Shown here one piece after another: positions 6,748 to 36,369 of a stretch of DNA of 64,000 nucleotides (positions are counted from its first letter, which is position 1; each line of letters begins with the position of its first letter). A program made the translations under genes and the position numbers. The notes below the pieces were generated by a model. That model was not told the DNA's origin. It did no database searches and saw only the letters and a program-made list of their open reading frames with translations. Location of the stretch: assembly GCA_016869145.1 (NCBI GenBank), contig VGEU01000001.1, positions 49,234 to 113,233 on the forward strand, given 5' to 3'. This DNA is from Alphaproteobacteria bacterium (lineage in GTDB: Bacteria > Pseudomonadota > Alphaproteobacteria > MPNO01 > VGEU01).

Positions 6748-6810
6748 GGAGCCTCCTCCCGGACGACGCCGACGCGCCGCCCGCCCGACGATGGGTTGAA
6801 CGCGACAGAC

Positions 6811-7983: not shown

Positions 7984-8387
7984 CGCTTGCTCCCGATGCC
8001 CTTGGTGACGGACTGACGGTCGTGCGGCTCGCCCGCTTCGCGCGGGTCGAGGAGCTTGTAGCGGCGGGCGAGATCGTGACCGGCCGCGCGCGACAATGGC
8101 TCGAGTGGCCCGCGACCGTGCGGGCAACGCATGTCCTCGACGGCGCCGAACAATCGGCACATGAACGGTCGTCGATCGTGGATATCACAGCGGCCCTGGA
8201 GCGACAACGGGCAGCGCCCGTCGTCGGGGAGCGCGGGCACCGCGTCGAGACCGCCGCGGCGGAGCTCGTGCGCGGTCCACGGCACCGGCCCGCAGCAATC
8301 GGTGCAGCCCTCGATGCAGATGAAGGACGGGATCTTCTTGTACAGGCGCTCGTGGCGCTTCGCGTCCCTCGCCCGGTCGGCCATCAT
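7980..8387 (-). CDS. YkgJ-family (UPF0153) CxxCxxCC zinc/iron-sulfur cluster protein
   Basis: 135 aa; the CIEGCTDCC motif (CxxCxxCC) plus additional Cys residues. It is translationally coupled to the downstream gene. Confidence 0.7.
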   Translation of the reverse strand: MMADRARDAKRHERLYKKIPSFICIEGCTDCCGPVPWTAHELRRGGLDAVPALPDDGRCPLSLQGRCDIHDRRPFMCRLFGAVEDMRCPHGRGPLEPLSRAAGHDLARRYKLLDPREAGEPHDRQSVTKGIGSKR

Positions 8388-10879: not shown

Positions 10880-11866
10880 CTACTTGGTCATGCCCGCCTT
10901 GAGCGCGATCTCGCGGAGCTCCGGCGCGCCGTCGCCACAGCACTGCTTGGCGAGCTCCCAGAGGCTCTCCGACCAGACCTTCTTCACGAGCTCCGCCTTC
11001 TCCGGCGAGAGCTGGAGGTCCTTCACGCCGAGCTTGGCGAGCTCGACATCCTCGTTCTTGAGGATCGCATCGCCGAGTGCCGGCATCTCTCGCTCGAGCC
11101 GCAGCCCGGCGTCGAGCAGAACCTGCTGCTCGGCCGGCGTGAGCGTGCCCCATTTCGCGATGTTGATCAGGATCGGCTCGTTCGAGGTGCCGAAGGTCGG
11201 CCGGACACGGAACTTCGCGACCTCGTAGTGCTTCATGCTGAGCATGCCGGCCGCCGGCCAGGCCGCTCCCTCGACGACACCCTTCTCGAGCGCGGTGTAG
11301 ATTTCGCCCGGCGGCAGCACGACCGGCGAACCGCCGAGCGCCCTGATGACGCCGTGATAGCTCTGCGTGCCGCGGATCTTCCGTCCCGCCCAGTCGCCGG
11401 CCGGAGACAGCGGCTCCCTGAGAAAGACGTGGTAGCCGTGATTGCTGGCCGCCGGTATGGCGACGGCACGCAGGTTGTGGTGCCGCTGGTAGTAGCGGCT
11501 GACGAACTCCCACACACCCGAGGCGCGCCGCTTGTCCGGATCGTGGTCGATCGCGTCGAGGACGAGCGCGATGCCCTTGGCGCCGGCGTGGTAGACGCCG
11601 TGGGTGAAGAGCATGTCGAACACGCCGGAGGAGACGGGCTGGAGCTGCTGGAACGGCGGCACGACGTCGTCGGCAAAGATCGTGATCTGGATCGCGCCCT
11701 TGCTCATCTCGTGGACGTATTTCTGGTAGTAGTCGACCGCCGCATAGGCCGGCCAGTTCGTCTTGTTCCAGCTCGACAGCAGACGGAGCTTGGTCTGGGC
11801 GTCGGCGCTCGACACGGCGCCGAACAGAACTGACAACACGAACCCCAACGCGATGATGATCCTCAT
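10880..11866 (-). CDS. TRAP transporter substrate-binding protein (DctP family), tandem copy B
   Basis: 328 aa with signal peptide MRIIIALGFVLSVLFGAVSSADA. It is a paralog of the 9804-10790 gene. No DctQ/DctM genes are in the window. Confidence 0.85.
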   Translation of the reverse strand: MRIIIALGFVLSVLFGAVSSADAQTKLRLLSSWNKTNWPAYAAVDYYQKYVHEMSKGAIQITIFADDVVPPFQQLQPVSSGVFDMLFTHGVYHAGAKGIALVLDAIDHDPDKRRASGVWEFVSRYYQRHHNLRAVAIPAASNHGYHVFLREPLSPAGDWAGRKIRGTQSYHGVIRALGGSPVVLPPGEIYTALEKGVVEGAAWPAAGMLSMKHYEVAKFRVRPTFGTSNEPILINIAKWGTLTPAEQQVLLDAGLRLEREMPALGDAILKNEDVELAKLGVKDLQLSPEKAELVKKVWSESLWELAKQCCGDGAPELREIALKAGMTK

Positions 11867-12014: not shown

Positions 12015-12776
12015 ATGGCAAAGCCCGTCACCCGCATCGGCACGCCGACGTCGCGCACCGACGTCCTCAAGATGCGGGGCAAGGACACGCTCAGCGATAT
12101 CGTCGGCAAGCGGTCCTTCACCGAGACGTTCTATTTCATCGTGACCGGCAAGCTGCCTAATGCCATGCAGACCAAGGTCTTCGACGCCTGTCTGATCATT
12201 CTGATGGATCATGGCATCACGCCCAACGCGCTGGTCGCGCGGATGGTCGAGGAAGCCTGTCCGGAAGACGTCCAGATCCCGATCGCGGCCGGGCTCCTCA
12301 TGGTCGGCAACAAATATGCCGGCACGATGACCGGCGCGGCGGTGATGTTGAGCGAGGGGATCAAGGCGCCGGACCACCGGGCCTGGGCGGCCGACTATGT
12401 CGCCAAGGCGCGCGCCGCCAAGCGACGGATCGCGGGCTTCGGCCATCCCTATTATTTCCCCGACGATCCGCGCGCCGCGCGCCTGTTTGAGGTGGCGCGG
12501 GAAGCCGGTGTCGATGGAAAATACATACGGCTGATCAAGCTGGTGAGCGAGGAGATCGACAAGGGCGGCAAGCACCTCACGCTCAACGTCACCGGGGCGA
12601 TGGGCGCCCTTCTCTGCGAGATCGACTTCCCGATCCCGGTCATGCGCGGCGTCTCGGTGATCGGACGCGCGGCCGGCCTCGTCTCCCACATCTACGAGGA
12701 GAAGACCAACGGCAACGCGGTCGCCAACGCGGTCATCGACCTCGTCAACAACGTCGAGTATCAGGACCCGGCATGA
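12015..12776 (+). CDS. Citryl-CoA lyase-like protein (short citrate synthase-family protein)
   Basis: 253 aa. The GFGHPYYFPDDPRA motif matches the citrate-synthase catalytic region (GFGHRVY..DPR). Its length fits the citryl-CoA lyase subfamily. Confidence 0.65.
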   Translation: MAKPVTRIGTPTSRTDVLKMRGKDTLSDIVGKRSFTETFYFIVTGKLPNAMQTKVFDACLIILMDHGITPNALVARMVEEACPEDVQIPIAAGLLMVGNKYAGTMTGAAVMLSEGIKAPDHRAWAADYVAKARAAKRRIAGFGHPYYFPDDPRAARLFEVAREAGVDGKYIRLIKLVSEEIDKGGKHLTLNVTGAMGALLCEIDFPIPVMRGVSVIGRAAGLVSHIYEEKTNGNAVANAVIDLVNNVEYQDPA

Positions 12777-12783
12777 CGGCGAC

Positions 12784-12806
12784 GGGGCGGGCCATCGGCC
12801 CGCCCC
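12784..12806. terminator. GC-rich hairpin (GGGGCGGGCC-atc-GGCCCGCCCC) downstream of the citryl-CoA lyase-like gene
   Basis: Perfect 10-bp inverted repeat with a 3-nt loop, seen directly. Confidence 0.5.
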
Positions 12807-12808
12807 GG

Positions 12809-12888
12809 CCTTGTTTCCCGGCTGGCCTCATTTCCCGGCTGGTCTTATTTCCCGGCCGGCCTTGTTTCAGGAGCCTTATTTCAGGAGG
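12809..12888. repeat. Five tandem ~14-17 bp degenerate repeats (CCTYRTTTC + CCGGCYGG or AGGAG). The last unit contains the GST stop codon.
   Basis: Sequence ccttgtttcccggctgg cctcatttcccggctgg tcttatttcccggccgg ccttgtttcaggag ccttatttcaggagg. Confidence 0.7.
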
Positions 12889-13481
12889 CCTTCGGCTTTC
12901 ATCGCCTCCTGCACCTTCGGCCGCGCGCCGACGCGGGCGTGGTAGTCCTTAAGACGCTGGTCGTTGATCTCGACGCCGACGCGCGCGCTCCAGTTCATCA
13001 CCGTGAACAGATAGGCATCGGCGACCGAGAAGTTCTTCCCCATCAGGTAATCCTTGCCCGCGAGCTCGCCCGAGATATAGGCGTAGCGCTGCGCGAGCCG
13101 CTCCTTGACGGTCGCCTTCACAGAATCGGGCGCCGTCGGGTTGAAGAGCCACGAATAGTTCTTGTGGAGCTCCGAGGTGATGAAGTTGAGCCACTCCTGC
13201 ACGCGGTAGCGCTCGACGGTGCCGTTCGTCGGCGCGAGCCCGGACTGCGGCGCCTTGTCGGCGAGGTACTGGACGATCGCGGGGCCCTCGGTGAGGCGCT
13301 GACCGTCGTCGAGCTCGAGCGTCGGCACATAGCCCTTCTTCGAGATCGCCGTGTAGTCGCCGCCGTCCTCCATCTTCCTGGCGCGGATATCGACCTTCAC
13401 CAGCGACACCGGAATCCCGGCCTCGCGCATCACGATGTGCGGCGACAGCGAGCACGCGCCGGGTGAGTAATAGAGCTTCAT
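12876..13481 (-). CDS. Glutathione S-transferase
   Basis: Start at MKLYYSPGACS (strong RBS AGGGAGGAAG). The GST N-terminal thioredoxin-like motif and C-terminal helical domain are present. Confidence 0.85.
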   Translation of the reverse strand: MKLYYSPGACSLSPHIVMREAGIPVSLVKVDIRARKMEDGGDYTAISKKGYVPTLELDDGQRLTEGPAIVQYLADKAPQSGLAPTNGTVERYRVQEWLNFITSELHKNYSWLFNPTAPDSVKATVKERLAQRYAYISGELAGKDYLMGKNFSVADAYLFTVMNWSARVGVEINDQRLKDYHARVGARPKVQEAMKAEGLLK

Positions 13482-13515
13482 CGCTTCCTCCCTCTTGCTG
13501 CTTCGATCGATCCAG

Positions 13516-15867
13516 TCACGCACGCTTGGCCGCCTTCAACGCGGCCCAGATCTTGGCCGGCGTCGCCGGCGTGTCGAGATGGGTCACGCCGCGGGTCGCG
13601 AGCGCATCGAGCACGGCGTTCATCACCGCCGGCAGCGAGCCGGCATTGCCGCCCTCGCCGCAGCCCTTGACGCCGAGCGGATTGGTCCGCGCCGGCACCG
13701 CATGGGTCGAGAACGCGAAGCTCGACAGCGTATCGGCGCGTGGCATGGCGTAGTCCATGTAGGACCCGGTCAAAAGCTGGCCGTCTTCGTCGTAGACGGC
13801 GCCTTCCATCAGCGCCTGGCCGGCGCCTTGGGCGATGCCGCCGTGCACCTGTCCCTCGACGATCAGCGGATTGAGCATGGTTCCGAAGTCGTCGACGACG
13901 GTGTAGCGCAGCATGTCGACCTCGCCCGTCTCAGGATCGATCTCGACCTCGCAGGCATGGCAGCCATTGGGATAGGTCGCGGGCGCGGTGTCGTGCGCGA
14001 GCGCGACGTCGAGTGACGTCGGCAGGCCCTCGGGCACGGTCGCGAGCGTCTTCACCTTCTGGGCCAGCGCGATCAGCCCGATGGTGCGGTCGGTGCCGGC
14101 GACGTGGAACGCACCGCCCCGATACTCGATGTCCTCGACCGCCGCCTCGAGCACGTGTGCGGCGAGCTTCTTGCCGTTCTCGATCACCTTCTCGGAGGCG
14201 GCGAGGATTGCGGTGCCCGAATGGATCGCCGATTTCGATCCGCCCGAGCCGCCGCCGATCACCATCTGGTCGGAATCGTCCTGGCGGACCGTGATGCGGT
14301 CGAACGGAACCTGGAGCTTCTCGCAGAGGATCTGGGCGAAGGTGGTCGCGTGCCCCATGCCGAAATCCTTCGAGCCGGTCCACAGCGTGACGGTGCCGTC
14401 GGGCTCGAAGCGGATGTCCGCGAGCTCCTTGCCGGGCGGCGCGGTGAGCTCGAGATAGGCGCCGATGCCGAAGCCGCGGAGCCGGCCGCGGGCTTCGGAC
14501 TCGCGCCGGCGCGCGGCGAATCCCGCCCGGTCGGCGCGCTCCATCGTCTTGTCGAGGACAGCGACGAAATCACCCGAGTCGTAGGTCATGTCGAGCGGCG
14601 TCTTGTAGGGCATCTGATCCCGCCCGATCAGATTGCGTCGCCGCAGTGCGACCGGGTCGCTCCCGGTCTCGCGCGCGGCCTGATCGATCAGCCGCTCGAG
14701 GATGTATTTCGATTCGGGCCGCCCCGCGCCGCGATAAGGCCCGGTCGGCACCGTGTTGGTCATCACGCATTTCATCGCGACGGCGACCGCCGGCGTCTTG
14801 TAGACGCTCACGATATTGCGGCTCAGCACGTTGGTCGGCGGCGCCGGCCCCATCGAGGTGAGATAGGCGCCCATGTTGCCGTGCCCGGTGATCCGGATCG
14901 CGAGGAAGTTCCCGTCCTTGTCGAGGGCCAACGCGGCATCGACGATGCTGGCCCGCCCCTGGTGATCGGAGAGGAAGCTCTCGGTCCGGTCGGCACGCCA
15001 CTTGACCGGCCGCATCAGCTTGCGCGCGGCATAGAGCACCGAGACGGATTCCGAATAAGGCTGGCCCTTCATGCCGAACGACCCGCCGACGTCTTGGCTG
15101 ACGACGCGGAGCTTCTTGGGATCGATCTTGAACACGCTCTGGGCGATGTTGTTGCGGAGCCCGAACACACCCTGCGAGCCGGTCCAGAGCGTCATCTTGT
15201 CCGACGCGGCGTCATAGGTCGCGAGCGCCGCGCGGGGCTCCATCGCGTTGACGACGACGCGGTTGTTGTCGAGGCGAAGCCGCGTGACGTGCGCGGCCTT
15301 GGCGAAGGCGGCGTCGACGGCCGCCGGATCGCCGAGGAGCCAGTCGAGGCAGACATTGTTCGGCATCTCGGGGTAGATCTGCGGCGCGCCGGGCTTCGCC
15401 CCTTCGACCGCATCGGTGACCGCCGGCAAGGGCTCGATCTCGAGCACGACGAGCTCGGCCGCATCCTGCGCCTGGTCGCGCGTCGCGGCGACGACAACGG
15501 CGACCGCGTCGCCGACATGGCGGACCCGGTCGACGGCGAGCGCCGGCCGGTGCGGGATGATGAGGGGCGAGCCATCGCGGCTCTTGAGCGGCACGACGCA
15601 GGGGAAGCCGCCGAGGCCATCGGCCGCCATGTCGGCGCCGGTGAAGATGTCGACCACCCCCGGCGCGCGTTTCGCCGCCGCGAGGTCGAGCTTTCGGATG
15701 AGCCCGTGCGCCACCGTCGAACGGACCATGACGGCGTGAACCTGGCAGGGCAGGCTCTCGTCGTCGGAATAAAGCCCGCGCCCGGTGAGGAGCCGGGGGT
15801 CCTCGGTGCGGCGGACCGGCTGGCCGATGCCGAAGCGGACGAGATCCAGGGCGCTGTCGTCGGGCAT
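13516..15867 (-). CDS. Xanthine dehydrogenase family molybdopterin-binding large subunit (orphan, no adjacent FeS/FAD subunits)
   Basis: 783 aa, N-terminus FGIGQPVRRTEDPRLLTGRGLY, with GGSFG, GAGRPES and QVHGGIAQG motifs. Confidence 0.9.
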   Translation of the reverse strand: MPDDSALDLVRFGIGQPVRRTEDPRLLTGRGLYSDDESLPCQVHAVMVRSTVAHGLIRKLDLAAAKRAPGVVDIFTGADMAADGLGGFPCVVPLKSRDGSPLIIPHRPALAVDRVRHVGDAVAVVVAATRDQAQDAAELVVLEIEPLPAVTDAVEGAKPGAPQIYPEMPNNVCLDWLLGDPAAVDAAFAKAAHVTRLRLDNNRVVVNAMEPRAALATYDAASDKMTLWTGSQGVFGLRNNIAQSVFKIDPKKLRVVSQDVGGSFGMKGQPYSESVSVLYAARKLMRPVKWRADRTESFLSDHQGRASIVDAALALDKDGNFLAIRITGHGNMGAYLTSMGPAPPTNVLSRNIVSVYKTPAVAVAMKCVMTNTVPTGPYRGAGRPESKYILERLIDQAARETGSDPVALRRRNLIGRDQMPYKTPLDMTYDSGDFVAVLDKTMERADRAGFAARRRESEARGRLRGFGIGAYLELTAPPGKELADIRFEPDGTVTLWTGSKDFGMGHATTFAQILCEKLQVPFDRITVRQDDSDQMVIGGGSGGSKSAIHSGTAILAASEKVIENGKKLAAHVLEAAVEDIEYRGGAFHVAGTDRTIGLIALAQKVKTLATVPEGLPTSLDVALAHDTAPATYPNGCHACEVEIDPETGEVDMLRYTVVDDFGTMLNPLIVEGQVHGGIAQGAGQALMEGAVYDEDGQLLTGSYMDYAMPRADTLSSFAFSTHAVPARTNPLGVKGCGEGGNAGSLPAVMNAVLDALATRGVTHLDTPATPAKIWAALKAAKRA

Positions 15868-15954
15868 GCGATACCTCTGGCAAAAGCGGGTGGCGAAAGC
15901 GGGCGGAGCCGTCTCTTTACCCGAGGCGGCGCGGAACCGGAAGTGAGGAGGTTG

Positions 15955-18099
15955 TCAGCCCGTGGCGTGAAGGCCCCAGAACGGTTTGCTGTAGCCGGGC
16001 GAACGCGGCTCCGGCCACGCGCCGTAGTAGCGGACGACCTCGTCCGGCGGCTTCCGCTTCGACCAAGCCCTCATGAACGCATCGAACGGCTTGCCCTTGC
16101 GCCGCCGCTCGCGACGGAGCGCGGCGCGGGCCCGTTCGGTCGCCGCACGGTCGACGAGGCCGGTCTCGGGATCGATCAGGACGCGATAGATGTCGCGTGC
16201 GACGGCCTCGGTGATCATGCCGTCGCGGAGGTCGCGGACGACCGCCTCGGGCTCGCGCTCGAGCACATCGCCATAGCCGCCGCCACCGCCCATGCTGAAG
16301 ATCATTAAGTCGCCTTCCTCGAACTTTTCCGCGCGCTGGCCGGACGGCTCGATGCGGTAGGTGCCGGCCAGCTTCTGCTCGGTGAGGAGCGCGTAGTAGC
16401 TGAGATCGACGTCCTCGCCCTCTGCGATGCGCGCGAAGAAATCGGACCTCTTGATGATGATGCGCGGATTGGGCGGGCCGTAATAGCCGCCCATCAGGCC
16501 GGGATTGTGGCTCAGCTTGTCGGCGCTGCCCCATGAGCTCAGGACACAACCGAGATGACCGCACGCGGTCGACACCTCGACGAGCGGCGCGCCGCCGCGA
16601 TATCTGCCGTAGCCGTGATAGTTGCGGTCGATCCGCCGATCGAGCACGAAATGCGGCAGACGGGTGTCGGTCTCCTCGGTCTCGCCCGAATCGGTGAACG
16701 GTCCCCAGAAGAACCCGATCGCGCTCTCGCCGTCGGAATCGAAGCGCGCCCCCTGCCCGGCCGCATTTGTCGCACCCGAGAAGTTCGCCGCCATATAGCC
16801 GCGCCGGTTCTCGCCCGAGAACACGAAGACGTTCTGGTTCCGCGAATGCGGTGCCTGGACCGCCTCGCGATAGGCGCTGTCGAACAGGAGCTTCGAGCCG
16901 AGGACATGCGCGCCGTTGACCACGCAGGCCGCGATCGAGGTTCCCATGCCGTGCGCGACGTCGTAGCTCGAGTTCGCGATCGACGGCCCCTCGACGAGAT
17001 AGCGGATCGGCTGCAGAAGGCCGGCGTTCGGTTTGAGCCCGCGATAGAAGTAGGAGAAGAGGTATACGGCGCTCGCCGCACGGACGAGATGCCAGGTGCC
17101 GTGCATCGGCCCGACCTTGTTCTCGGGCGAGACGCCCTGGACCAGGATCGTGAGCCCGTCACCCTCCTTGATCATCGTCACGGGTATGCGCGTCAGCCCG
17201 AGCGCGCCGCCGAGATCGTCGTCGTTGAACATGACCGCGCGGAAGATCCCGTCGTTGAGCTCGGCGATCCGCGCGCGCGCCTCGATCTCCGCCCGCATCA
17301 GGATCCGCCGCATGCCGCCGACGACCATGTGGACACCGCGCCGCTCGACCTCGCGCATGAGGCGGTCGCGGATCAGCTTCAGGGTCGCGACGCGCGAGCG
17401 GAGATCGGCGGCGAAAACGAACGGGTTGCGGACCGACCCGGTCATCATGTCGAGGACGTCCTGGTTGAGAAGCCAGTCGCTCCCGATCCGCATCATCTGG
17501 ATGTGGAGACCCTCCTCGTAGCGCGAGCGAGCCTTCGAGTTGAAGCCGCCCGGCGTCGGCGAGCCGGAATCGCCCTGATGGCCGCCACAGCTCACCCAGC
17601 CGACCAGCTCCTCGCCGAAGAACACGGGTGCGGCGGTGAACATGTCGAAGGCGTGCACGCCGCCCGCGGTCTCGTCGTTGAAGAAATAGATGTCGCCGTC
17701 GCGGAGCCCGACGGTCGGATTGGGACGGTAGTACTTGTTGACGTATTTGAGCTGGGCGTTGTTGAGCATCGTGTGGAAATAGATGCCCGTCGCGACCGCC
17801 ACCGGATCGCCCGAGGCGGTGAAGAGGCCGCAATTCATGTCGCCGGTGATGACGCTCTCGGTGATCGAAAGCGCCATGTAGACATCGCGCGCCTCTTCGA
17901 CGATCGCGGTCAGCTTGTGGTGAAGGAGCTCGACGTCGAGATCGTTCACACGCCCGATGCCTTCGGCCTCGAGCGCCGTGACCGGCTCGAGGCCGTGGCA
18001 GATCAGATCGGGGTCGACGCCCGGCCCGCGCCCATAGGCGTCACGGTCATAAGTGAGCCCCGCGGTGAGCCGGACGTGATGATCGAACAGGGCGCCCAT
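15955..18099 (-). CDS. Hydantoinase B / oxoprolinase (HyuB) family protein, acetone-carboxylase-alpha-like, tandem copy 1
   Basis: 714 aa, with GDMNCGLFTASGDPVAVATGIYFH, a glycine-rich GGGGGYGDVLEREPEAV segment and a C-terminal extension. It is about 70% identical to the next gene. Confidence 0.85.
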   Translation of the reverse strand: MGALFDHHVRLTAGLTYDRDAYGRGPGVDPDLICHGLEPVTALEAEGIGRVNDLDVELLHHKLTAIVEEARDVYMALSITESVITGDMNCGLFTASGDPVAVATGIYFHTMLNNAQLKYVNKYYRPNPTVGLRDGDIYFFNDETAGGVHAFDMFTAAPVFFGEELVGWVSCGGHQGDSGSPTPGGFNSKARSRYEEGLHIQMMRIGSDWLLNQDVLDMMTGSVRNPFVFAADLRSRVATLKLIRDRLMREVERRGVHMVVGGMRRILMRAEIEARARIAELNDGIFRAVMFNDDDLGGALGLTRIPVTMIKEGDGLTILVQGVSPENKVGPMHGTWHLVRAASAVYLFSYFYRGLKPNAGLLQPIRYLVEGPSIANSSYDVAHGMGTSIAACVVNGAHVLGSKLLFDSAYREAVQAPHSRNQNVFVFSGENRRGYMAANFSGATNAAGQGARFDSDGESAIGFFWGPFTDSGETEETDTRLPHFVLDRRIDRNYHGYGRYRGGAPLVEVSTACGHLGCVLSSWGSADKLSHNPGLMGGYYGPPNPRIIIKRSDFFARIAEGEDVDLSYYALLTEQKLAGTYRIEPSGQRAEKFEEGDLMIFSMGGGGGYGDVLEREPEAVVRDLRDGMITEAVARDIYRVLIDPETGLVDRAATERARAALRRERRRKGKPFDAFMRAWSKRKPPDEVVRYYGAWPEPRSPGYSKPFWGLHATG

Positions 18100-18141
18100 G
18101 GTCCTCCCTCCCGGCCCGACGCTGCCCGCCGCACGGCGCGC

Positions 18142-20286
18142 TCACGCACCGTTGCGATACAATCCCCAGAACGGTTCCTTATAGGATTCGAGGCGCGGTT
18201 CCGGCCAATTGCCGTAATAGGTGAGCACATCCTTGGGCGGCTTGAGCTTCGACCACGACTTGATGAACTGGTCGAAGGTCTTTCCCTTGGTGAGCCGCTC
18301 GTGGCGCGCCTTGGCGCGGCGCTTCATGGTGGCTGCGGGATCGAGAAGGCCGGTCTCGGGGGTGATCGCGACCCGATAGACCTTCTCTGCGACGTCCGTG
18401 GTGATGATGCCGGCATCGAGGTCGGCGAGCACCGCCTCGGGCTCGCGCTCGAGCACGTCGCCGTAGCCGCCGCCGCCGCCGCAGGAGTGGATGAAGATGT
18501 CGGCATCCGTGAACCGCTCGGCGCCCTTGGCGCTCGAGGACAGGATGTACTCGCCCTCGACCGTCCGCTCGGTCAGGAGCTTGTACTGGCCGAGCTCGAT
18601 GTCCTCGCCGGCGGCGATCCGTTCCTGGATGTCCGATTTCTTGAGGACGAAACGCGGGTTGGGCGGCCCGGCATAGCCGCCGAACAGCCCCATATTGTGG
18701 CTCACCTTGTTGCCCTGCCCCCAGGTCGCGACCAGGCAATTGCGATCGACGCAGCCGATCCCGATCTCGACCAGCGGCGTGCCGCCGCGGAACTTGCCGA
18801 AGCCGTGGAAATTGGTATCGAGCTTGCGCGACAGGATGATGTGCGGCATGCGGTCGTCGGCGTCCTCGACCTCGCCCGCGTCGCAGAACGGGCCCCAGTA
18901 AAAGCCGACCGCGTCCTCGGCATCCATGTCGAAGCGTCCGCCGCCGCCGCCGGCATTGACCGTACCCGTCATGTTCGCCGCGTAGTAGCCGCGCCGGTTC
19001 TCGCCGCCGATCGACGGCACCACGTAGTTGCGCGAGTGCGAGGCCTGCACGGCCTCACGATACGGGCTCCCGAACAGCATCTTGGCGCCGGCGATGAAGA
19101 GGTTCTGCGTGATGAAGGCGCAGGCCGACGGCGAGTTGCCGTGCGCGACCTCATCGGTCGCATTCACCATCGACGGCCCTTCGATCAGATAGCGCACCGG
19201 CTCGAGAAGGCCGGCATTCGGCATCAGCCCGCGGAAGAAGTAGGAGAACAGGTAGACGCCCGTCACCGCACGGGCGAGATGCCAGGAGCCGTGGAACGGC
19301 CCGATCGAGTTCTGCGGCGAGGTGCCCTGGACGAGAACGGTGAGCCCGTCGCCCTCCTTGAAGACGGTGAGCGGCACCCGCGTCAGGCCGAGATAGTTGC
19401 CGTGCTCGTCGTTGAACACGACCGAGCGGAAGATGCCGTCGTTGATCTCGCGGAGCCGCCCGCGCGCCGACTGCTCGCCCTTGATCAGGATGCGGCGCAT
19501 GCAGCCGACCACGACCTCGACGCCGCGTCGCTCGACCTCGCGGATGAGCCGCTGGCGCATCTGGAACATGGTGGCGACGCGCGACTTGAGATCGGCAATG
19601 AACACGAACGGGTTGCGCACCGCGCCGCCCATCATGTCGAGGACGTCCTGGTTGAGGCGGAAGTCGGAGCCGATCCGCATCGCCGGGATGTGGAGCCCCT
19701 CCTCGTAGCGGGTCGAAGCCTTGGGCGCGAAGCCGCCCGGCGTCGTCGAGCCGGTCTCGCCCTGGTGGCCGCCGACCTCGGCCCAGGCGATCAGCTCGCC
19801 CTTGTAGAAGATCGGCATCGCCGTGAACATGTCGAAGACATGGATGCCGCCGCCGAGCTCGTCGTTGAAGAAATAGATGTCGCCGTCCTGAAGACCTACC
19901 GTCGGGTTCGGCCGGTAGTACTTGTTGATGTACTTGATCTGGCCGTTGTTGAGGAGCGTGTGGAAGTAGATCCCGGTCGCGACCGCGACGGGATCGCCCG
20001 AGGCGGTGAATATCCCGCAGTTCATGTCGCCGGTGATGATCCCTTCCGAGATCGACAGCGCCATATAGACGTCGCGCCCCTCCTCGACGATCGAGGAGAG
20101 CTTGTGGATCATCAGATCGGCGTCGATCTCGGATACGCGCTCCATGCCGCGGCGCTCGATCTCGGTCACGGGCTCGAGGCCGTGACAGATCAGCTCAGGA
20201 TCGCAGCCGGGCCGCTTGCCGTAGACGTCCATGTCGTAGGTGAGCCCGTCGAAGAGCCGGGCGTTTTGTTCGAACAGCAAGCCCAT
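18142..20286 (-). CDS. Hydantoinase B / oxoprolinase (HyuB) family protein, tandem copy 2
   Basis: 714 aa, paralog of the 15955-18099 gene. No HyuA-type (ATP-binding hydantoinase A) gene is adjacent. Confidence 0.85.
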   Translation of the reverse strand: MGLLFEQNARLFDGLTYDMDVYGKRPGCDPELICHGLEPVTEIERRGMERVSEIDADLMIHKLSSIVEEGRDVYMALSISEGIITGDMNCGIFTASGDPVAVATGIYFHTLLNNGQIKYINKYYRPNPTVGLQDGDIYFFNDELGGGIHVFDMFTAMPIFYKGELIAWAEVGGHQGETGSTTPGGFAPKASTRYEEGLHIPAMRIGSDFRLNQDVLDMMGGAVRNPFVFIADLKSRVATMFQMRQRLIREVERRGVEVVVGCMRRILIKGEQSARGRLREINDGIFRSVVFNDEHGNYLGLTRVPLTVFKEGDGLTVLVQGTSPQNSIGPFHGSWHLARAVTGVYLFSYFFRGLMPNAGLLEPVRYLIEGPSMVNATDEVAHGNSPSACAFITQNLFIAGAKMLFGSPYREAVQASHSRNYVVPSIGGENRRGYYAANMTGTVNAGGGGGRFDMDAEDAVGFYWGPFCDAGEVEDADDRMPHIILSRKLDTNFHGFGKFRGGTPLVEIGIGCVDRNCLVATWGQGNKVSHNMGLFGGYAGPPNPRFVLKKSDIQERIAAGEDIELGQYKLLTERTVEGEYILSSSAKGAERFTDADIFIHSCGGGGGYGDVLEREPEAVLADLDAGIITTDVAEKVYRVAITPETGLLDPAATMKRRAKARHERLTKGKTFDQFIKSWSKLKPPKDVLTYYGNWPEPRLESYKEPFWGLYRNGA

Positions 20287-20342: not shown

Positions 20343-21248
20343 TCACGCCCGCGCCGCCCGACCGGAGAGGATCACCAGCACGATACCGGCGATGATGGTC
20401 GCCATGCCGGCGATGAGGTTCACCGACACCGGCTCGCCGAGCGCGACGATCCCGATGAGCATGGCGAGCACAGGCGCGGCAAGATAGCCGATCGAGGCGG
20501 TGATCGGCGACAGGTTGCGCGAGGCGACATTGACCGCCCAGATGCCGAGCCCCGTGCACACGGGGCCGGCGATCGTGATCAGACCCAGCATCTCGGTCGT
20601 CCAGGTCATGCCGCGGTCGCCGTCGAAGATGAAGGCCGCGCCATTGGTGACGATGATCGCGCAGATGAGCTGCCACGGGACGAGCTGGAGGGGCGTCAGG
20701 TTCCACTTGTGGACCCGAAGCTGGATCATCGCGATCGCCCAGCAGATCGCGCAGACGAGGAGGAGCGCGTTCCCGATCACGACGTTCCGGTCCGACCAGT
20801 CGAAGTCGAGCGGGTTGAACAGGATGACGAGCCCGACCATGCCGAGCGCGAGACCGGCCGCCTTCATCCGGTCGAGACGCTCGCCGAGGACGAAGATCGC
20901 GATCGGCGTGACCCAGAGCGTGGTCGTGTAGCCGAGGAGCGTCGCCCGCCCCGCCCCGACATATTGGAGACCCAGCATGCAGAGGCATAGATAGATCCCG
21001 AGCATGAACACGCCGACCGAGATGATCGCCGGCGCGTCCTGCCAGCGCGGCCAACGGAGCTGACCGATCGCCGCGAGCACGATGAAGAGAGCGGCGAAAC
21101 CGGTCGTCATCCGCCACGCGCCGAACCAGAGGGCGGGCGCGGTCACCGCCCCGACCCGCATGAGCGGCCACAGGATCGCATAGTTGAGTACGCTGATGAC
21201 GAGGCAAATCCAGCCCATCCGCGTCGCAGACTGGAGGGAGCGGTCCAT
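20343..21248 (-). CDS. DMT superfamily (EamA-like) transporter
   Basis: 301 aa with 10 predicted TM helices and two EamA-like halves. The start could instead be at the internal MGWICLV. Confidence 0.75.
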   Translation of the reverse strand: MDRSLQSATRMGWICLVISVLNYAILWPLMRVGAVTAPALWFGAWRMTTGFAALFIVLAAIGQLRWPRWQDAPAIISVGVFMLGIYLCLCMLGLQYVGAGRATLLGYTTTLWVTPIAIFVLGERLDRMKAAGLALGMVGLVILFNPLDFDWSDRNVVIGNALLLVCAICWAIAMIQLRVHKWNLTPLQLVPWQLICAIIVTNGAAFIFDGDRGMTWTTEMLGLITIAGPVCTGLGIWAVNVASRNLSPITASIGYLAAPVLAMLIGIVALGEPVSVNLIAGMATIIAGIVLVILSGRAARA

Positions 21249-21275: not shown

Positions 21276-22043
21276 TCAGCCGTGCATCGTGAGGCCGCCC
21301 GAGACGCTGATGACCTGGCCGGTGATGAACCCCGCGTCCCGGCTGACCAGAAACGCGACGATGCCCTCGATGTCCTCGGGTTGGCCGACACGCTTCATCG
21401 GGATCGCGCGCTGCAGCGCGTCATAGACCTTCTTGCCCTGCTCGCCCTCGCCGACGAAGGAGCGGAGGATGGGCGTATCGGTCGGCCCCGGACAGACGCA
21501 GTTGACCGTGATGCTCCGCGTCGCCATCTCGCGCGCCAGCGTCTTCGTGAAGGCGATCATGCCGCCCTTGCAGGCGGAATAGACGGATTCTCCCGACGAG
21601 CCGACCCGGCCGGCGTCGGAGGCGATCGAGACGATCGCGCCGCGACCGCGCTCGGCCATCCGTTTCACCACGTGGTGGGTGACGTTGAGCGGCCCGCCCA
21701 GGTTGATCCCGATCACCTTGTCCCAGAACGCGGGATCGCTGTCGACGAAGTTGAGGAAGCGGTCCCAGCCGGCATTGTTGACCAGGATGTCGACCGGCCC
21801 GGCCGCGGCCTCAACGGCCGCGACCGCTGCGCCGACCGCGGCGTAGTCGGTGATGTCGACGGTCCGCGCGACGGCACGACCGCCCGTGCTTCCGATCAGC
21901 CGCGCCGTCTCGGCGGCGGCCGCTTCATCGATGTCGAGCACGGCGACCACCGCGCCCTCGCGCGCCAGACGCCGACAGATCGCCCGCCCGATCGCGCCGC
22001 CGCCGCCGGTGACGATCGCAACCTTGCCCGCAAGCCCTTCCAT
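21276..22043 (-). CDS. SDR family NAD(P)-dependent oxidoreductase
   Basis: 255 aa with TGGGGAIG Rossmann motif, NNAG and the YxxxK active site (YSACK). Confidence 0.85.
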   Translation of the reverse strand: MEGLAGKVAIVTGGGGAIGRAICRRLAREGAVVAVLDIDEAAAAETARLIGSTGGRAVARTVDITDYAAVGAAVAAVEAAAGPVDILVNNAGWDRFLNFVDSDPAFWDKVIGINLGGPLNVTHHVVKRMAERGRGAIVSIASDAGRVGSSGESVYSACKGGMIAFTKTLAREMATRSITVNCVCPGPTDTPILRSFVGEGEQGKKVYDALQRAIPMKRVGQPEDIEGIVAFLVSRDAGFITGQVISVSGGLTMHG

Positions 22044-22136
22044 GGTCCCCTTCCCTCGATTGACGCGGCGTACTCTCTACGCGGCGGCGCCCGAGAGCAA
22101 GCTTGACCCGGGCCGGCCCGGTTCCGACAATCCGGC

Positions 22137-23759
22137 ATGACCGCCGCACCCGTCACGACGACGGCCTGGCCGCCGGCCACGGAGCCGTTCCTCCCCTTCG
22201 AGTCCGTCCGCGCCCTCCTCCGGAAGTACCGCGACCGGCACCCGGCAAAGCTCGCGCTCTACTCCCTCGACGAGGAGCGCGGCATCGACTTCGCGACGCT
22301 CGATGCGCTCACCGAACGCGTGGTGTGCTTTCTCCACGCCGAGGGCATCGGCCGCGGCGACCGTGTGGTGGTTCTCGCCGACGAGCGGATCGAGAAGCTC
22401 GTCCTGATGATCGCGGCGTGGCGGCTCGGCGCCGTCGCCTGCCCGTTCCACACCGAGATCAACCTCGATCATCTCCGCTTCATCCTGACCACGATCGCGC
22501 CGAAGATCGTGTTCTGGCACGAGAGCGTCGACGGGCCGTCGCTCGCCGGCCATCTCCGTGTGCCGGTGGTCCGTTTCGACCGTTGGCCGGCCGCCGGCGC
22601 CGACGCGGCCGAGCTGTTCACCCGCCTCGCCCGCGAGCCAGCCGGCGCCGCCCCCGACGTCGAGAACGGGCCCGACGACATCGCCTGCATCTTCTCGACC
22701 TCGGGCACCACCGACAAGCCGAAATGCGTCGTCTGGGACCATCTCGCGCTCTGGCTCACCACGCTCAACACGATCGACTTCACCGGCCAGAACGCCGATG
22801 ACCGGATGCTCGAGTACCGAACGTTCTCGTGGCTGTCACCGCAGATCATCTCGCTGTCGCCGTTCGTGATGCTGGGCTTCTCGCTCTATCTCGCGAACGG
22901 CTTCTCGCGGAGCCGGTTCTTCGACTGGATCCGGAACCACCGGATCACCGTCGTCGCCGGCGTGCCGACCGTGATCAACATGCTGCTCAACCGCCCGGTC
23001 GAGATCGGCTCGAACGAGCTCGAGAGCGTCCGCATCATGACGTCGTCGACGGCGCCGCTCTCGCCCGAGCAATGGCAGCGCTTCGAGACGATGTACGGCA
23101 TCCGCCTCCTGCAATTCTTCGGCGCCTCCGAGGTCGGCTGGTTCACCGGCAATCGTCACTACAATTGGAAGTTCGGCACCGTCGGCCAGCCGGCGATGTA
23201 CACCGATTTTGCGATCCTCGACGACGCGGGCAATGTCGTGCCGCCCAGTGTCGAGGGCGAGGTCGGCTTTCGCGGCCGTTGCACGGCGAACGCCTCGATC
23301 TCGCCCGACGGGGCCTGGGAGGACCGCGTGCCGACGCGCGAGACCGAGTATTCGCGCGCGGGCGATCTCGCGGTGATGGACGCGGAGGGTTTCATCACCG
23401 TCACCGGCCGGACCAAGGACCTGATCATCCGCGGCGGGGTCAACATCGCGCCGCTCGAGATCGACCGCGTGCTGATGCGCCATCCGCAGATCCAGGAGGC
23501 AGCCGCCGTCGGTGTGCCCGATCCGATCTTCGGCGAGGAGGTCGTCGCCTATGTCGTGGCGCGCGCCGCGCTCACGACGGAGACGGTGAAGGCCCATTGC
23601 GCGACGAGCCTCCCGGCCTCCAAGGTGCCGAAGGAGGTCCACTTCGTCGACAGCCTGCCGCGCTCGGACCGCGGCAAGATCCGACGGGCCGCGCTCAAGG
23701 ATCACTGGCTCGCCGCGCGCCAGGGCATCAGCAACCCTGACAAGGAGACCCTACGATGA
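22137..23759 (+). CDS. AMP-dependent synthetase/ligase (acyl-CoA or aryl-CoA ligase, class I adenylate-forming)
   Basis: 540 aa with the STSGTTDKPK AMP-binding motif, plus GEVGFRGRC and a C-terminal PRSDRGKIRR. Confidence 0.85.
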   Translation: MTAAPVTTTAWPPATEPFLPFESVRALLRKYRDRHPAKLALYSLDEERGIDFATLDALTERVVCFLHAEGIGRGDRVVVLADERIEKLVLMIAAWRLGAVACPFHTEINLDHLRFILTTIAPKIVFWHESVDGPSLAGHLRVPVVRFDRWPAAGADAAELFTRLAREPAGAAPDVENGPDDIACIFSTSGTTDKPKCVVWDHLALWLTTLNTIDFTGQNADDRMLEYRTFSWLSPQIISLSPFVMLGFSLYLANGFSRSRFFDWIRNHRITVVAGVPTVINMLLNRPVEIGSNELESVRIMTSSTAPLSPEQWQRFETMYGIRLLQFFGASEVGWFTGNRHYNWKFGTVGQPAMYTDFAILDDAGNVVPPSVEGEVGFRGRCTANASISPDGAWEDRVPTRETEYSRAGDLAVMDAEGFITVTGRTKDLIIRGGVNIAPLEIDRVLMRHPQIQEAAAVGVPDPIFGEEVVAYVVARAALTTETVKAHCATSLPASKVPKEVHFVDSLPRSDRGKIRRAALKDHWLAARQGISNPDKETLR

Positions 23760-24496
23760 CCACCCAGACCGTCCTCGTCACCGGCGGCGCGAGCGGCATC
23801 GGCCTCGCAAGCGTCGGCCTCCTCAATGCCGCGGGCCACAACGTCGTCGCCTGCGACATCCAGGCCGACAAGCTCGCGCGCGACGTGCCGAAGGATCCGA
23901 AGATCGCGACCGTCGCCGGCGACGTGACGCGGAAGGCCGACTGCGACAAGGCGGTCGCCGTCGCGCTCGAGAAGTTCGGCCGCCTTGATGCGCTCCTCCA
24001 CTGGGCCGGCATCCACGATGGCGGCACGCTAGAGGACATGAGCGAGGCCGAGTGGGACCGCGTCATGGCGATCAACGTCAAGGCCGCGTTCCTGATCGCC
24101 CAGGCTGCCGCGCGCCCGATGGTACGCCAGGGCGCCGGTGCGATCGTGCTCACGAGCTCGACCTCGGTCCTGTTCGGCGGCGCCGGCGGCGAGGGCCAGG
24201 TCGGGCCGGCCTATGTCGCATCCAAGGCGGCCATCATCGGGCTCACCCGCTCGCTCGCCCGCGGCCTCGGGCCGAAAGGCGTGCGGGTCAATGCCGTCAG
24301 CCCCGGGATCACCGAGACGCCCATGATCGGCGTGTTCTCGGACAATTTGCGCCGCGAGGCGGTAAAGCGCTTCCCGCTCGGGCGTTTCGGCCGCGCCGAG
24401 GAGATCGCGGCCGTCGGCTGCTTCCTGATCTCGGACGGCGCGAGCTTCATGACCGGCGAGGTCGTCCACGTCAATGGCGGGTCCAATTTCGGCTGA
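23756..24496 (+). CDS. SDR family oxidoreductase
   Basis: 246 aa with TGGASGIG and YVASK motifs. It overlaps the ligase stop by 4 nt, indicating translational coupling. Confidence 0.85.
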   Translation: MTTQTVLVTGGASGIGLASVGLLNAAGHNVVACDIQADKLARDVPKDPKIATVAGDVTRKADCDKAVAVALEKFGRLDALLHWAGIHDGGTLEDMSEAEWDRVMAINVKAAFLIAQAAARPMVRQGAGAIVLTSSTSVLFGGAGGEGQVGPAYVASKAAIIGLTRSLARGLGPKGVRVNAVSPGITETPMIGVFSDNLRREAVKRFPLGRFGRAEEIAAVGCFLISDGASFMTGEVVHVNGGSNFG

Positions 24497-24594
24497 CGCC
24501 CGCCCTTGGCACGCTATAGTGCCGATAGCGCACAGCACACGCCGGGCCGGGCACACGCGGGGCCTGGCACACGCGACGAATGAGGGAGGCCAGA

Positions 24595-25299
24595 ATGCAC
24601 AAGTTCGAGATGCCCAAGGACTATGTCCAGCGCGTGATCGACCGCCAGGGTCGCGCCCACACGGTCGAGAGCTTCGACACCAAGCGCACCGCCCTCGTCG
24701 TCGTCGACATGCAGATCTATTTCATGCGCGAGGACCAGCTCGGTGCCAACCCGATAGCGCAGGAGATCGTGCCCAACGTCAACCGCCTCGCCGATGCGGT
24801 GCGGCGGTCGGGCGGCATCGTGATCTGGATCCAGAACCTCGCGCCCTATGAATCCCTCGAAAGCTGGGATGTGCTCCGCGAGCGCTTCACCGACGACAAG
24901 ATCGACCGCCGCTGGGCGGCGATGCAGCGCGATGCGGAGCCGTTCCAGCTATGGCCCGGCCTCGACGTGCGGCCCGAGGACAAGCGCGTCGTCAAGCGCC
25001 GCTTCAGCGCCTTCATCCAGGGCTCGTCCGACATCGAGAACGTGCTCCGCGACGCCAATATCAAGACCATCATCGTCACCGGCGTCGCGACCAATGTGTG
25101 CTGCGAGTCGACCGCGCGCGACGCGATGATGCTCAACTACCGCTCGATGATGGTCTCCGACGGCTGCGCCACGGCGACCGACGAGGAGCACCACGCCTCG
25201 CTCTCCAATTTCTACATCCAGTTCGGCGACGTGCAGACGACCGACGAGATCATCGCCCGCCTCGATGCCTCGGCGCGGCGCAACCAGGCGGCCGAGTAG
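24595..25299 (+). CDS. Isochorismatase-family cysteine hydrolase
   Basis: Start at MHKFEM. ALVVVDMQIYF (Asp) ... K ... VTGVATNVCCEST (the catalytic Cys region) matches the isochorismatase or N-carbamoylsarcosine amidase family. Confidence 0.8.
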   Translation: MHKFEMPKDYVQRVIDRQGRAHTVESFDTKRTALVVVDMQIYFMREDQLGANPIAQEIVPNVNRLADAVRRSGGIVIWIQNLAPYESLESWDVLRERFTDDKIDRRWAAMQRDAEPFQLWPGLDVRPEDKRVVKRRFSAFIQGSSDIENVLRDANIKTIIVTGVATNVCCESTARDAMMLNYRSMMVSDGCATATDEEHHASLSNFYIQFGDVQTTDEIIARLDASARRNQAAE

Positions 25300-25327
25300 G
25301 CTGGCCGCGACGACACGGAGAACGACG

Positions 25328-25720
25328 ATGGGCAAGCGCGCACTGAAGCCGTCCTCCGTTCGGGCGAAGGGGAGCTACAGCCCCGGCTGGGAGGTCTCGA
25401 ACGGCCGCCTCATCTTCGTCGCCGGCCAGATCCCGTGGGACGAAGAGGGCCGTGTCGTCGCCAAGGGCGACGTCGCGGGCCAGACCCGGCAGGTGTTCAA
25501 AAACATCGCCGCCGTCCTCGCCGAGGCCGGCGCGACGCTCGACGACGTGATCAAGATCACCGTCTTCGCCGCCGACATCCGGTTTCGCGACCAGATCAAC
25601 CAGGTTCGGACCGAGACCTTCAAGGCCCCCTACCCGGCGAGCACCCAGGTGGCGGTCGCGGCGCTGGTCGATTCCGAGTGGATGGTCGAGATCGAGGCGA
25701 TCGCGTTCGTGCCGAACTGA
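25328..25720 (+). CDS. RidA/YjgF family protein (reactive-intermediate deaminase)
   Basis: 130 aa from MGKRALKP. GQIPWDEEGRVVAKGDVAGQTRQVFKNI and the C-terminal VEIEAIAF are typical of RidA. Confidence 0.8.
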   Translation: MGKRALKPSSVRAKGSYSPGWEVSNGRLIFVAGQIPWDEEGRVVAKGDVAGQTRQVFKNIAAVLAEAGATLDDVIKITVFAADIRFRDQINQVRTETFKAPYPASTQVAVAALVDSEWMVEIEAIAFVPN

Positions 25721-25767
25721 CGCGCCGACGCGGACGGCGACACCAGGGGACCAGTGGAGAGGGCGTA

Positions 25768-26967
25768 GTGGCCACCAAGCTCGTCATCAGGAACGTCCGG
25801 ACCATGCTCTCGGGCCGGATGGAAAAACCGATCCTCGATGCCGATACGATCGTCGCCGTCGACGGCAAGATCGCAGCGATCGGGCGTGAGAAGGACGTCG
25901 ATACCGGCCATGCGACGACGGTCATCGACGCCAAGGGCTCGTCAATCGCGCCGGGGCTGATCGACAGCCACGTGCACCCGGTCGCCGGCGACTGGACACC
26001 GCGCCAGCGCCAGGTGGACTGGATCGAATCCTCGATGAACGGCGGCGTGACGACGATGATCTCGGCGGGCGAGGCGCATTTCCCCGGCCGCGCCCGCGAC
26101 CCGGTCGGCGTCAAGGCGCTCGCCATCACCGCGCAGCGCTCGTTCGATGCCTTCCGGCCGGGCGGCGTCAAGGTCCTGGCCGGCGCGCCGATCCTCGAGA
26201 AGGGTCTCGTCGAGGAGGACTTCGCCGAGATGGCGAAGGCCGGCGTCAAGCTCCTCGGCGAGGTCGGGCTCGGGGGCGTGAAGTCCGGCGACGAGGCCAA
26301 GAAGATGGTCGCCTGGGCGCGAAAATACGGCATCCAGAGCACCATCCACACCGGCGGGCCCTCGATCCCGGGCTCCGGCCTGATCGACAAGGACGTCGTG
26401 CTCGAGGCCGACGCCGATGTGATCGGCCACATCAACGGTGGTCACACCGCGTTGCCGCTGCCGCAGATCTGCGCGCTCTGCGAGCTCTCAGCGCGCGGCA
26501 TCGAGATCGTCCACAACGGCAACGAGCGCGCCGGGCTCTACGCGCTCCGGATCGCGCGCGAGCTCCGCCAGATGAACCGCGTGATCCTCGGCACCGACGG
26601 GCCGGCCGGATCGGGCGTGCAGCCGCTCGGCATCATCCGGCTGATCGCGCTCCTCTCCGCGCTCGGCGACGTGCCGGCCGAGATCGCGTTCTGCTTCGCG
26701 ACCGGCAACACAGCGCGGATGCGCAATCTCGACCAGGGGATTCTCGAGGTCGGCCGCCCGGCCGATTTCGTCTTCATCGATAAGGCGCAGCATTCGGCCG
26801 GCCGCGATCTCCTCGACTCGGTCCAGCTCGGCGACATCCCGGGCGTCGGCATGGTGGTGATCGACGGGATCGTCCGCTGCGCGCGGAGCCGGAACACACC
26901 GCCCGCCGAGAACGCGCCCGAGATCGTCTCGGGCGGCAGCGGCGGCGGCGGCGGCGGCGGCCACTGA
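25768..26967 (+). CDS. Metal-dependent amidohydrolase (enamidase-like, dihydroorotase/imidazolonepropionase superfamily)
   Basis: GTG start with RBS GGAGAGGG. The protein begins VATKLVIRNVRTML; GLIDSHVHP (HxH) and downstream His/Asp motifs match the amidohydrolase family. It has an unusual C-terminal SGGSGGGGGGGH tail. Confidence 0.7.
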   Translation: MATKLVIRNVRTMLSGRMEKPILDADTIVAVDGKIAAIGREKDVDTGHATTVIDAKGSSIAPGLIDSHVHPVAGDWTPRQRQVDWIESSMNGGVTTMISAGEAHFPGRARDPVGVKALAITAQRSFDAFRPGGVKVLAGAPILEKGLVEEDFAEMAKAGVKLLGEVGLGGVKSGDEAKKMVAWARKYGIQSTIHTGGPSIPGSGLIDKDVVLEADADVIGHINGGHTALPLPQICALCELSARGIEIVHNGNERAGLYALRIARELRQMNRVILGTDGPAGSGVQPLGIIRLIALLSALGDVPAEIAFCFATGNTARMRNLDQGILEVGRPADFVFIDKAQHSAGRDLLDSVQLGDIPGVGMVVIDGIVRCARSRNTPPAENAPEIVSGGSGGGGGGGH

Positions 26968-31260: not shown

Positions 31261-31279
31261 CTCGCACTCGGGCTCAGAT

Positions 31280-36359: not shown

Positions 36360-36369
36360 CCTCGGTGCG

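Follow-up and report, generated by a model that had tools for sequence, protein, structure and literature searches.

We analysed 64,000 nucleotides of the 193-kb contig VGEU01000001.1 (the window) from an alphaproteobacterial metagenome-assembled genome (MAG), the FJX67 MAG. On the minus strand lie two adjacent genes, B1 (18142-20286; MBM3485068.1, FJX67_00315) and, downstream of it, B2 (15955-18099; MBM3485067.1), whose products resemble Apc-beta, the HyuB-type subunit of acetophenone carboxylase (Apc). As the sequence-only reading of this DNA had described, both are HyuB-type genes encoding 714 aa and arranged head-to-tail; the open reading frame (ORF) map gives two ATG-started 714-codon ORFs 42 nt apart, and both products match Pfam family PF02538. 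The identity of about 70% given in that reading has to be lowered, since BLASTP returns 63% (447/714), with 77% positives and one gap in a colinear alignment. The spacer (18100-18141, minus strand) holds the Shine-Dalgarno sequence of B2, GGGAGGGAGGA, followed by its ATG, and B1 has its own strong site, beginning GGGAGGA, a few bases 5′ of its start codon. The GC content at third codon positions (GC3) is 0.88-0.90 for both genes, typical for real genes in this window of 67% GC.

The operon on the minus strand reads short-chain dehydrogenase (SDR), EamA transporter, B1, B2, Mo-hydroxylase large subunit and glutathione S-transferase (GST). Its first gene (21276-22043) encodes a BadH-like SDR (Pfam adh_short; 347 bits with the NCBIfam model BadH, whose cutoff of 431 is not reached). 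The EamA/DMT transporter gene (20343-21248; Pfam EamA, E=3e-30) ends 56 nt upstream of B1. The large subunit of a Mo-hydroxylase of the xanthine dehydrogenase family (13516-15867; Ald_Xan_dh_C, MoCoBD_1 and MoCoBD_2) starts 87 nt downstream of B2; all its NCBIfam matches are under cutoff, and no small or FAD subunit gene adjoins it. These two neighbours, the transporter and the partnerless Mo-hydroxylase subunit, are those that the earlier reading had named. The last gene (12876-13523) overlaps the Mo-hydroxylase gene by 8 nt and encodes a GstA-like GST (GST_N/GST_C; 252 bits with the NCBIfam model GstA, whose cutoff is 198).

The coding frames of B1, B2 and the Mo-hydroxylase gene coincide (13516-20286): one stop codon closes B1, one closes B2, and each time the frame then stays open up to the next start codon. 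The shared frame is probably chance, since two genes would fall into the frame of B1 at random in 1/9 of cases. Stop-codon readthrough fusing the three products was considered and set aside as unnecessary, because every gene has its own ribosome-binding site.

Family assignment and the partner genes

Both proteins match Hydantoinase_B (PF02538) over the whole profile (3-518 of 519), B1 with 247.6 bits (E=3e-73) and B2 with 260.4 bits (E=4e-77), against a gathering threshold of 26.8 bits. The best structural match of B2 in the PDB is 5L9W_A, which is Apc-beta (E=1e-95), over residues 39-699, with the C-terminal YYG-WP region inside the alignment; weaker matches are acetone carboxylase alpha (7e-45, split into two partial stretches) and caprolactamase beta (4e-28). 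In NCBIfam the best model is ApcD (NF042976), with 368 bits for B1 and 356 bits for B2. The label first given to the pair, acetone-carboxylase-alpha-like or hydantoinase-like, is therefore replaced by Apc-beta-like. Since the equivalog cutoff of ApcD is 1500 bits, the proteins are Apc-like and not acetophenone carboxylase proper, and judged from these scores the substrate is probably not acetophenone. Acetophenone carboxylase proper turns acetophenone into benzoylacetate in an ATP-dependent carboxylation, with 2 ATP going to 2 ADP.

The metal-site residues D87, H149, D152 and H174 are present in B1 and B2 and do not vary in an alignment of 16 subfamily sequences. They match D65, H123, D126 and H148 of the Apc-beta metal site (PMC5214803); the acetone carboxylase counterparts, E89, H150, D153 and H175, are ligands of the catalytic Mn, which lies 40 Å away from the nucleotide site (PMC5543143). 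Conservation extends far beyond the metal site. Among 43 operon-encoded betas, 158 positions never vary, and B1 and B2 each retain all 158, where leave-one-out comparison predicts 99.4%; a hydantoinase-type beta retains 39% of the same positions. The retained positions include all 17 invariant positions of the C-terminal arm, which in Apc-beta embraces the gamma subunit (PMC5214803); in the region 385-615, with its glycine-rich polyproline-II segments, all 43 family-invariant positions are likewise kept. Constraint on both genes is thus unrelaxed.

This bears on the suspicion that the pair might be a leftover or an artefact, that is, decaying duplicates or two unrelated betas joined in a chimeric contig. 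The genes do lie apart from all partner genes, and MAGs may hold misjoins. Against this stand the intact ORFs with their own ribosome-binding sites, their GC3 and the complete set of invariant positions. Two further assemblies of the source material, a JGI metagenome contig and a Logan contig, match at 100% identity over partial B1, B2 and the start of the Mo-hydroxylase gene; because they reproduce the junctions, the B1-B2-Mo arrangement is not a misjoin and a chimeric contig is ruled out. Neither gene is a recombinant mosaic, as sliding-window identities show a constant nearest relative along each. Taken as a whole, decay or artefact is a most improbable explanation.

The comparison with characterised enzymes sharpens the assignment. 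B1 and B2 are homologous to Apc-beta over their full length, including the N-terminal region and the C-terminal arm, and keep its Asp/His/Asp/His site. With acetone carboxylase alpha (AcxB-type; 5SVB, 5M45) they share the PF02538 fold family, the aligned Mn ligands and a HyuB-type dimer core; Acx alpha, however, has 776 aa rather than 714, Acx has neither alpha′ nor epsilon, and its genes are ordered acxABC. Acx has HyuA-type and 168-aa gamma subunits, and tblastn found no acxA- or acxC-like genes near B1 and B2. With HyuB, OplB and CapB (6YRA_B, 7HK5) they share Hydantoinase_B, and those proteins partner with a HyuA-type subunit of the ASKHA fold. In contrast to B1 and B2, the betas of hydantoinase, 5-oxoprolinase and caprolactamase are of about 580 aa, lack the C-terminal arm and a gamma subunit, and in the case of HyuB are encoded directly after hyuA; N- and C-terminal extensions make B1 and B2 the longer proteins. 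Identity between B1 or B2 and a hydantoinase-type beta (584 aa) is 24-25%, and no hyuA adjoins the pair.

The absence of a HyuA partner nearby, on which the earlier reading had built its two proposals, holds throughout the window. Pfam scans of all its high-GC3 ORFs found no Hydantoinase_A domain, and six-frame tblastn of the 64 kb with five HyuA-type, three gamma and three epsilon-like queries, taken from proteins of related loci, returned nothing (best HyuA E>0.2). A gamma-like match (E=0.004) is antisense within B1 and is noise. The 691-aa ORF at 5941-8016 (plus strand), of a size to suit a HyuA, has no Pfam match, is antisense to two high-GC3 ORFs and is spurious. Two observations would have overturned the earlier reading, namely HyuA motifs in one of the paralogs or a hyuA gene of the same operon just outside the window. 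Neither protein has a HyuA domain. Because both operon bounds, the divergent region at 22044-22136 and the convergent gene with a hairpin (~12780-12810), lie inside the window, no HyuA is hidden in the same operon beyond it.

A complete set of partners is encoded elsewhere in the same MAG. A third paralog, P0049, identified by exact-sequence look-up as MBM3485210.1 (FJX67_01040), lies on a 116.7-kb contig and is 62% identical to B2. Its operon (locus L001) encodes, in order, a protein with Acetone_carb_G (156 aa), one with Hydantoinase_A (709 aa), P0049 itself (711 aa), a URO-D-like protein (293 aa) and a second HyuA-like protein, truncated by the contig end. The 709-aa HyuA matches 5L9W_B, or Apc-alpha (E=2e-158). 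For alpha′ the complete ortholog of the related operon L004 (654 aa), 78% identical to the truncated copy of the MAG, served as query and matches 5L9W_b, or Apc-alpha′ (E=2e-115). The gamma protein matches 5L9W_C, or Apc-gamma (E=8e-41), and keeps both Cys pairs (four Cys), and the URO-D-like protein matches 9FOU_A, or Apc-epsilon (E=1e-7). The X-type beta P0049, alpha and alpha′ are 78-88% identical to the proteins of L004, gamma 75% and the epsilon-like protein 55%. L001 and the window are nearly equal in GC, and their tetranucleotide correlation (r=0.988) is the highest among the loci compared. A URO-D-like gene follows the beta or betas in L001 (6810-7691), in L004 (12139-13017) and, as an equivalent, in about 35 loci; because the protein matches 9FOU_A, epsilon appears far commoner in Apc-like operons than the 2017 paper reported.

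The five genes that together mark an Apc gene cluster (alpha′, gamma, alpha, beta, epsilon) do not lie together at the B1-B2 locus, and the set exists in trans. Homologs of all five Apc subunits are encoded in one genome, and their gene order (gamma, alpha, beta, epsilon, alpha′) differs little from that of Apc, alpha′ having shifted to the end. Apc has one beta gene, situated in its operon, whereas the clade studied here has two or three beta paralogs, and in the FJX67 MAG two of them are encoded apart from the kinase genes. A CoA-transferase follows the operon, in place of a CoA ligase. It should be kept in mind that the paralogous pair of Apc, alpha and alpha′, consists of HyuA-type ASKHA kinases and not of HyuB-type proteins (PMC5214803). 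The sole characterised member of the Apc branch in the searchable literature is Apc of A. aromaticum, with its single beta, and no description of duplicated or trans-encoded Apc-beta subunits was found there.

Paralog lineages and the origin of the tandem

Trees computed by neighbour-joining for about 115 and later 65 members of the family, without support values, give two sister clades: X, with the first-position betas, P0049 and B1, and Y, with the second-position betas and B2. At 32 positions that discriminate X from Y, B2 has the Y state at 29, and B1 has 18 X, 7 Y and 7 other states, which is consistent with B1 being an early offshoot of X; we call this lineage X′. Within clade X, B1 groups with solitary genes at two other loci, L006 (83% amino acid identity) and L027 (89%). 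The nearest relatives of B2 sit in operons of the order gamma, alpha, beta, beta, epsilon-like, alpha′, CoA-transferase (L004, 83%; L005, 74%). Compared with single-beta lineages, neither X nor Y is systematically more derived (7 versus 7). X is followed directly by Y in at least six operons, and one contig carries three consecutive betas. By this phylogenetic placement the two genes of the tandem come from separate, old paralog lineages (X′ and Y), and the tandem did not arise by local duplication.

How the two came together can be read from a Rhodospirillales MAG (GCA_050187845.1), in which locus L006 is syntenic with the window: the amidohydrolase is 89% identical, the ligase 78%, the SDR 75%, the isochorismatase 74% and the EamA transporter 65%, the last with a 65% identical ortholog in L027 as well. 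L006 carries an ortholog of B1 (P0037, 83%) and then directly the Mo-hydroxylase ortholog (69% over the N-terminus), without a second beta. The apparent alignment of the long C-terminal tail of P0037 with sequence beyond the stop codon of B2 is low-complexity noise. In the same MAG, the B2 ortholog P0002 (82%) stays in a canonical operon (L008), between X and the epsilon-like gene, and a third MAG shows the same split between loci (L027, L029, L047, L058). DNA homology between the window and L006 ends at 18157 and restarts at 15869; because of this break, B2 is seen to occupy a 2.3-kb insertion. In L006, the spacer that separates the B1 ortholog from the Mo-hydroxylase gene (~11390-11480) holds a long, near-perfect palindrome resembling a repetitive extragenic palindromic (REP) element, missing from the window, where B2 lies instead.

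The operon at L001 has only an X beta, with 100 nt where its relatives carry Y. B2 is 82-83% identical to the second beta of the L004 and L008 operons, and since this resembles the identity of the X, alpha and alpha′ proteins of the MAG to their orthologs, B2 is an ortholog that has moved, rather than an extra copy of long standing.

The wider survey places this arrangement among others. One scan of species-representative genomes, which detects only betas with one of two peptide patterns, yielded 50 loci that were mapped by tblastn, and roughly 60 loci were compared overall. About 35 are canonical operons (Type I), ordered (gamma)-alpha-beta-(beta)-epsilon-like-alpha′-(CoA-transferase), in Proteobacteria, Actinomycetota, Chloroflexota, Bacillota and Binataceae. 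In Type II loci (L030-L039 and L048, the latter the same locus as L002; 11 genomes) a beta of clade Y stands alone, next to one or two HyuA/HyuB pairs of the hydantoinase type in divergent orientation. In Type III (L009, L010, L012) a solitary X-clade beta lies near a Mo-hydroxylase, a TctC binding protein and an ADP-forming acyl-CoA synthetase. Type IV (L006, L027) has a solitary B1-type beta with EamA upstream and, where the contig reaches (L006), the Mo-hydroxylase directly downstream. The flanking genes of Type II are always HyuA(689)/HyuB(584) pairs, divergent and conserved in the 11 genomes (for example, L036 3551-7449). Locus L028 is that of the Rubrobacter marinus protein P0050.

The distribution of Y is complementary. 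All 11 other genomes in which Y is solitary carry only an X-clade beta in their canonical operon, and wherever Y is present, X co-occurs in the genome. A canonical operon is present in all 14 genomes with any solitary beta, the FJX67 MAG included. X-only genomes seem to exist (L007, L017, L022). In the Defluviicoccus-type canonical operons (alpha, X, epsilon-like, alpha′; L011, L013-L016, L018, L023, L049, L051, L052) no gamma gene was found within 10 kb, even at E<5, so in these gamma is either absent or encoded elsewhere too.

A proposed trans-encoded carboxylase and its alternatives

We propose that B1 and B2 probably serve, encoded in trans and possibly as alternatives, as beta subunits of a ketone carboxylase that is Apc-like and ATP-dependent. 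The FJX67_01040 operon would supply the partners, namely the ASKHA kinases alpha and alpha′, the Zn-finger protein gamma, and epsilon; physical assembly of B1 and B2 with these subunits is inferred from the analogy with Apc. If they work as in Apc and acetone carboxylase, the alpha-type subunits would phosphorylate ketone and bicarbonate, and the intermediates may react at or near beta, whose Asp/His/Asp/His site is the counterpart of the acetone carboxylase Mn site. In Apc the protomers meet through beta-beta contacts only (PMC5214803), and because of this and of the recurring X-then-Y order the most economical model would be a heterodimeric X-Y core, here X′-Y, sharing one set of alpha, alpha′, gamma and epsilon. 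With B1 there would then be an isoenzyme co-expressed with the surrounding catabolic operon of SDR, transporter, Mo-hydroxylase and GST, near which lie the CoA ligase and citryl-CoA-lyase-like genes. A more general version, in which one kinase set serves several exchangeable betas in different catabolic operons as a modular system, is conceivable, and we hold it somewhat more in doubt than in favour. What had first been suggested as a B-B′ heteromer recruiting a distant HyuA thus fits the kinase set in the same MAG and the orthology of B2; the heteromer itself would follow from the beta-beta interface and gene order just described. The finding would then be an Apc-like carboxylase with multiple dispersed betas rather than a partnerless HyuB enzyme.

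Several points weigh against this proposal. The ApcD scores lie far under the equivalog cutoff. The assignment of L001 and the window to one genome is by MAG binning, matching composition and matching levels of divergence, and the link between the B1-B2 locus and the FJX67_01040 operon is genomic in kind. Conservation of residues cannot prove continued binding of alpha and gamma. The apparent X-only genomes mean that the clade as a whole does not depend on an X-Y heteromer, and since Defluviicoccus-type operons show no nearby gamma, the subunit composition of these enzymes is uncertain. Finally, genes of the B1 type are consistently tied to a Mo-hydroxylase and not to a carboxylase operon, and could have a different job.

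This last point leads to the explanation that B1, perhaps as a B1-B2 heterodimer, is an ATP-independent metal enzyme that works in the pathway of the adjacent Mo-hydroxylase without a HyuA-type kinase. It might decarboxylate a beta-keto acid, the reverse of a half-reaction, or hydrolyse or tautomerise a hydroxylated heterocycle. Neither the operon nor the 64 kb has a HyuA, gamma or epsilon gene; the B1 ortholog of L006 is solitary and directly precedes the same Mo-hydroxylase, the partial ortholog of L027 shares the upstream EamA gene, the solitary betas of Type III lie 2-3 kb from a Mo-hydroxylase, and the intact metal site makes catalysis at beta conceivable. On the other hand, every characterised family member requires an ASKHA subunit to phosphorylate its substrate (PMC5214803, PMC5543143, PMC8453981). 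Without contacts to alpha and gamma one would expect drift, and the 158 invariant positions, the gamma-embracing arm among them, are unrelaxed. Moreover, B2 is orthologous to an in-operon subunit, and no surveyed genome with a solitary beta is without a canonical operon. The association with Mo-hydroxylases is itself uneven. A tight link in Type II was tried and rejected, as the Mo-hydroxylase gene there lies 5-8 kb off on the opposite strand, among unrelated catabolic genes, a loose link in catabolic islands rich in such genes; the links that remain are those of the B1-type loci and, more loosely, of Type III. We regard a stand-alone role for B1 as rather unlikely. That solitary Apc-beta-like proteins in general act alone, independently of ATP and together with a Mo-hydroxylase in the catabolism of heterocycles or aromatic acids, seems less likely again. 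The ATP-independent function offered in the sequence-only reading thus has gene position in its favour and no further positive support.

A different division of labour would leave B1 and B2 unpaired, each forming a beta2 core on the shared partner set, so that up to three isoenzymes (X, X′ and Y) of different ketone specificity would exist and the adjacency of B1 and B2 would be incidental. The characterised Apc core is a beta2 homodimer (PMC5214803), X′ (in L006) and Y (in Type II) occur as solitary genes apart from each other in other genomes, and the metal site is complete in both B1 and B2. However, X accompanies Y in every genome with Y, and the two adjoin in the X-then-Y operons. In the window, Y has landed directly downstream of an X-type gene, restoring that order, which is more typical of an obligate paralog pair. 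Separate homomeric isoenzymes therefore strike us as distinctly improbable.

Whatever the assembly, a large uncultured alphaproteobacterial group has a core subunit duplicated into stable paralog lineages that are often encoded apart from the kinase genes. If trans-assembly is true, the annotation 'orphan hydantoinase B' misleads, and pathway reconstruction must join distant loci. If the betas can be exchanged for one another, a single ATP-activating module could be steered towards different ketone substrates, which would be relevant to understanding and engineering ATP-dependent, biotin-independent carboxylation. A stand-alone function, if true, would be a new activity for the fold and the first case of a HyuB-fold enzyme working without an ASKHA kinase partner.

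Neighbouring genes and other observations

The divergent intergenic (promoter) region at 22044-22136 separates, in the gene map, the SDR-EamA-B1-B2-Mo-GST operon from a ligase operon on the plus strand (22137-26967), which by Pfam encodes an AMP-forming acyl-CoA ligase, an SDR, an isochorismatase-family hydrolase and an amidohydrolase. The region holds one sigma-70-like match (22103-22131, plus strand), a frequency not above chance expectation. At the other end, convergent with the B1-B2 operon, lies a citryl-CoA-lyase-like gene (12015-12776, plus strand; 271 bits with NCBIfam NF004868, which has its cutoff at 193). Between the convergent genes a GC-rich hairpin with an 11-bp stem (12783-12807, plus strand) is a likely terminator; terminator-like sites overall show no enrichment over shuffled sequence.

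Homologs of the citryl-CoA-lyase-like protein (35-56% identity) are encoded in L007 (16235-16984), L022 (5694-6389), L025 (13032-13703) and L026 (15109-15825). The occurrence of such genes at the ends of canonical operons and beside B1-B2 hints at a shared downstream step. The acyl-CoA ligase, the BadH-like SDR, the citryl-CoA-lyase-like gene and a family III CoA-transferase gene (43581-44747) would, as genomic context, fit a route from a carboxylated product to its CoA thioester and on to cleavage.

Three high-GC3 ORFs have no Pfam match: 5668-6810 (380 aa), 6811-8184 (457 aa) and 30391-31377 (328 aa), all on the minus strand. The first two adjoin each other and abut a TctA transporter gene.

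Four genes for Mo-hydroxylase large subunits lie in the 64 kb, at 1-2238, 13516-15867, 32764-35571 and 59375-62194, all on the minus strand. The partners recognised, with 35517-36428 (minus strand) among the listed genes, are one FAD-subunit gene and one fused 2Fe-2S domain; with one of each for four large subunits, several of the latter look orphaned.

The window also has four paralogs of UbiD-family (prenylated-FMN) decarboxylases within 12 kb (47154-48686 and 53660-55204 on the plus strand, 55853-57313 and 57376-59112 on the minus strand), and among them lie genes for a quinolinate phosphoribosyltransferase (51091-52053) and for TctC-type binding proteins.

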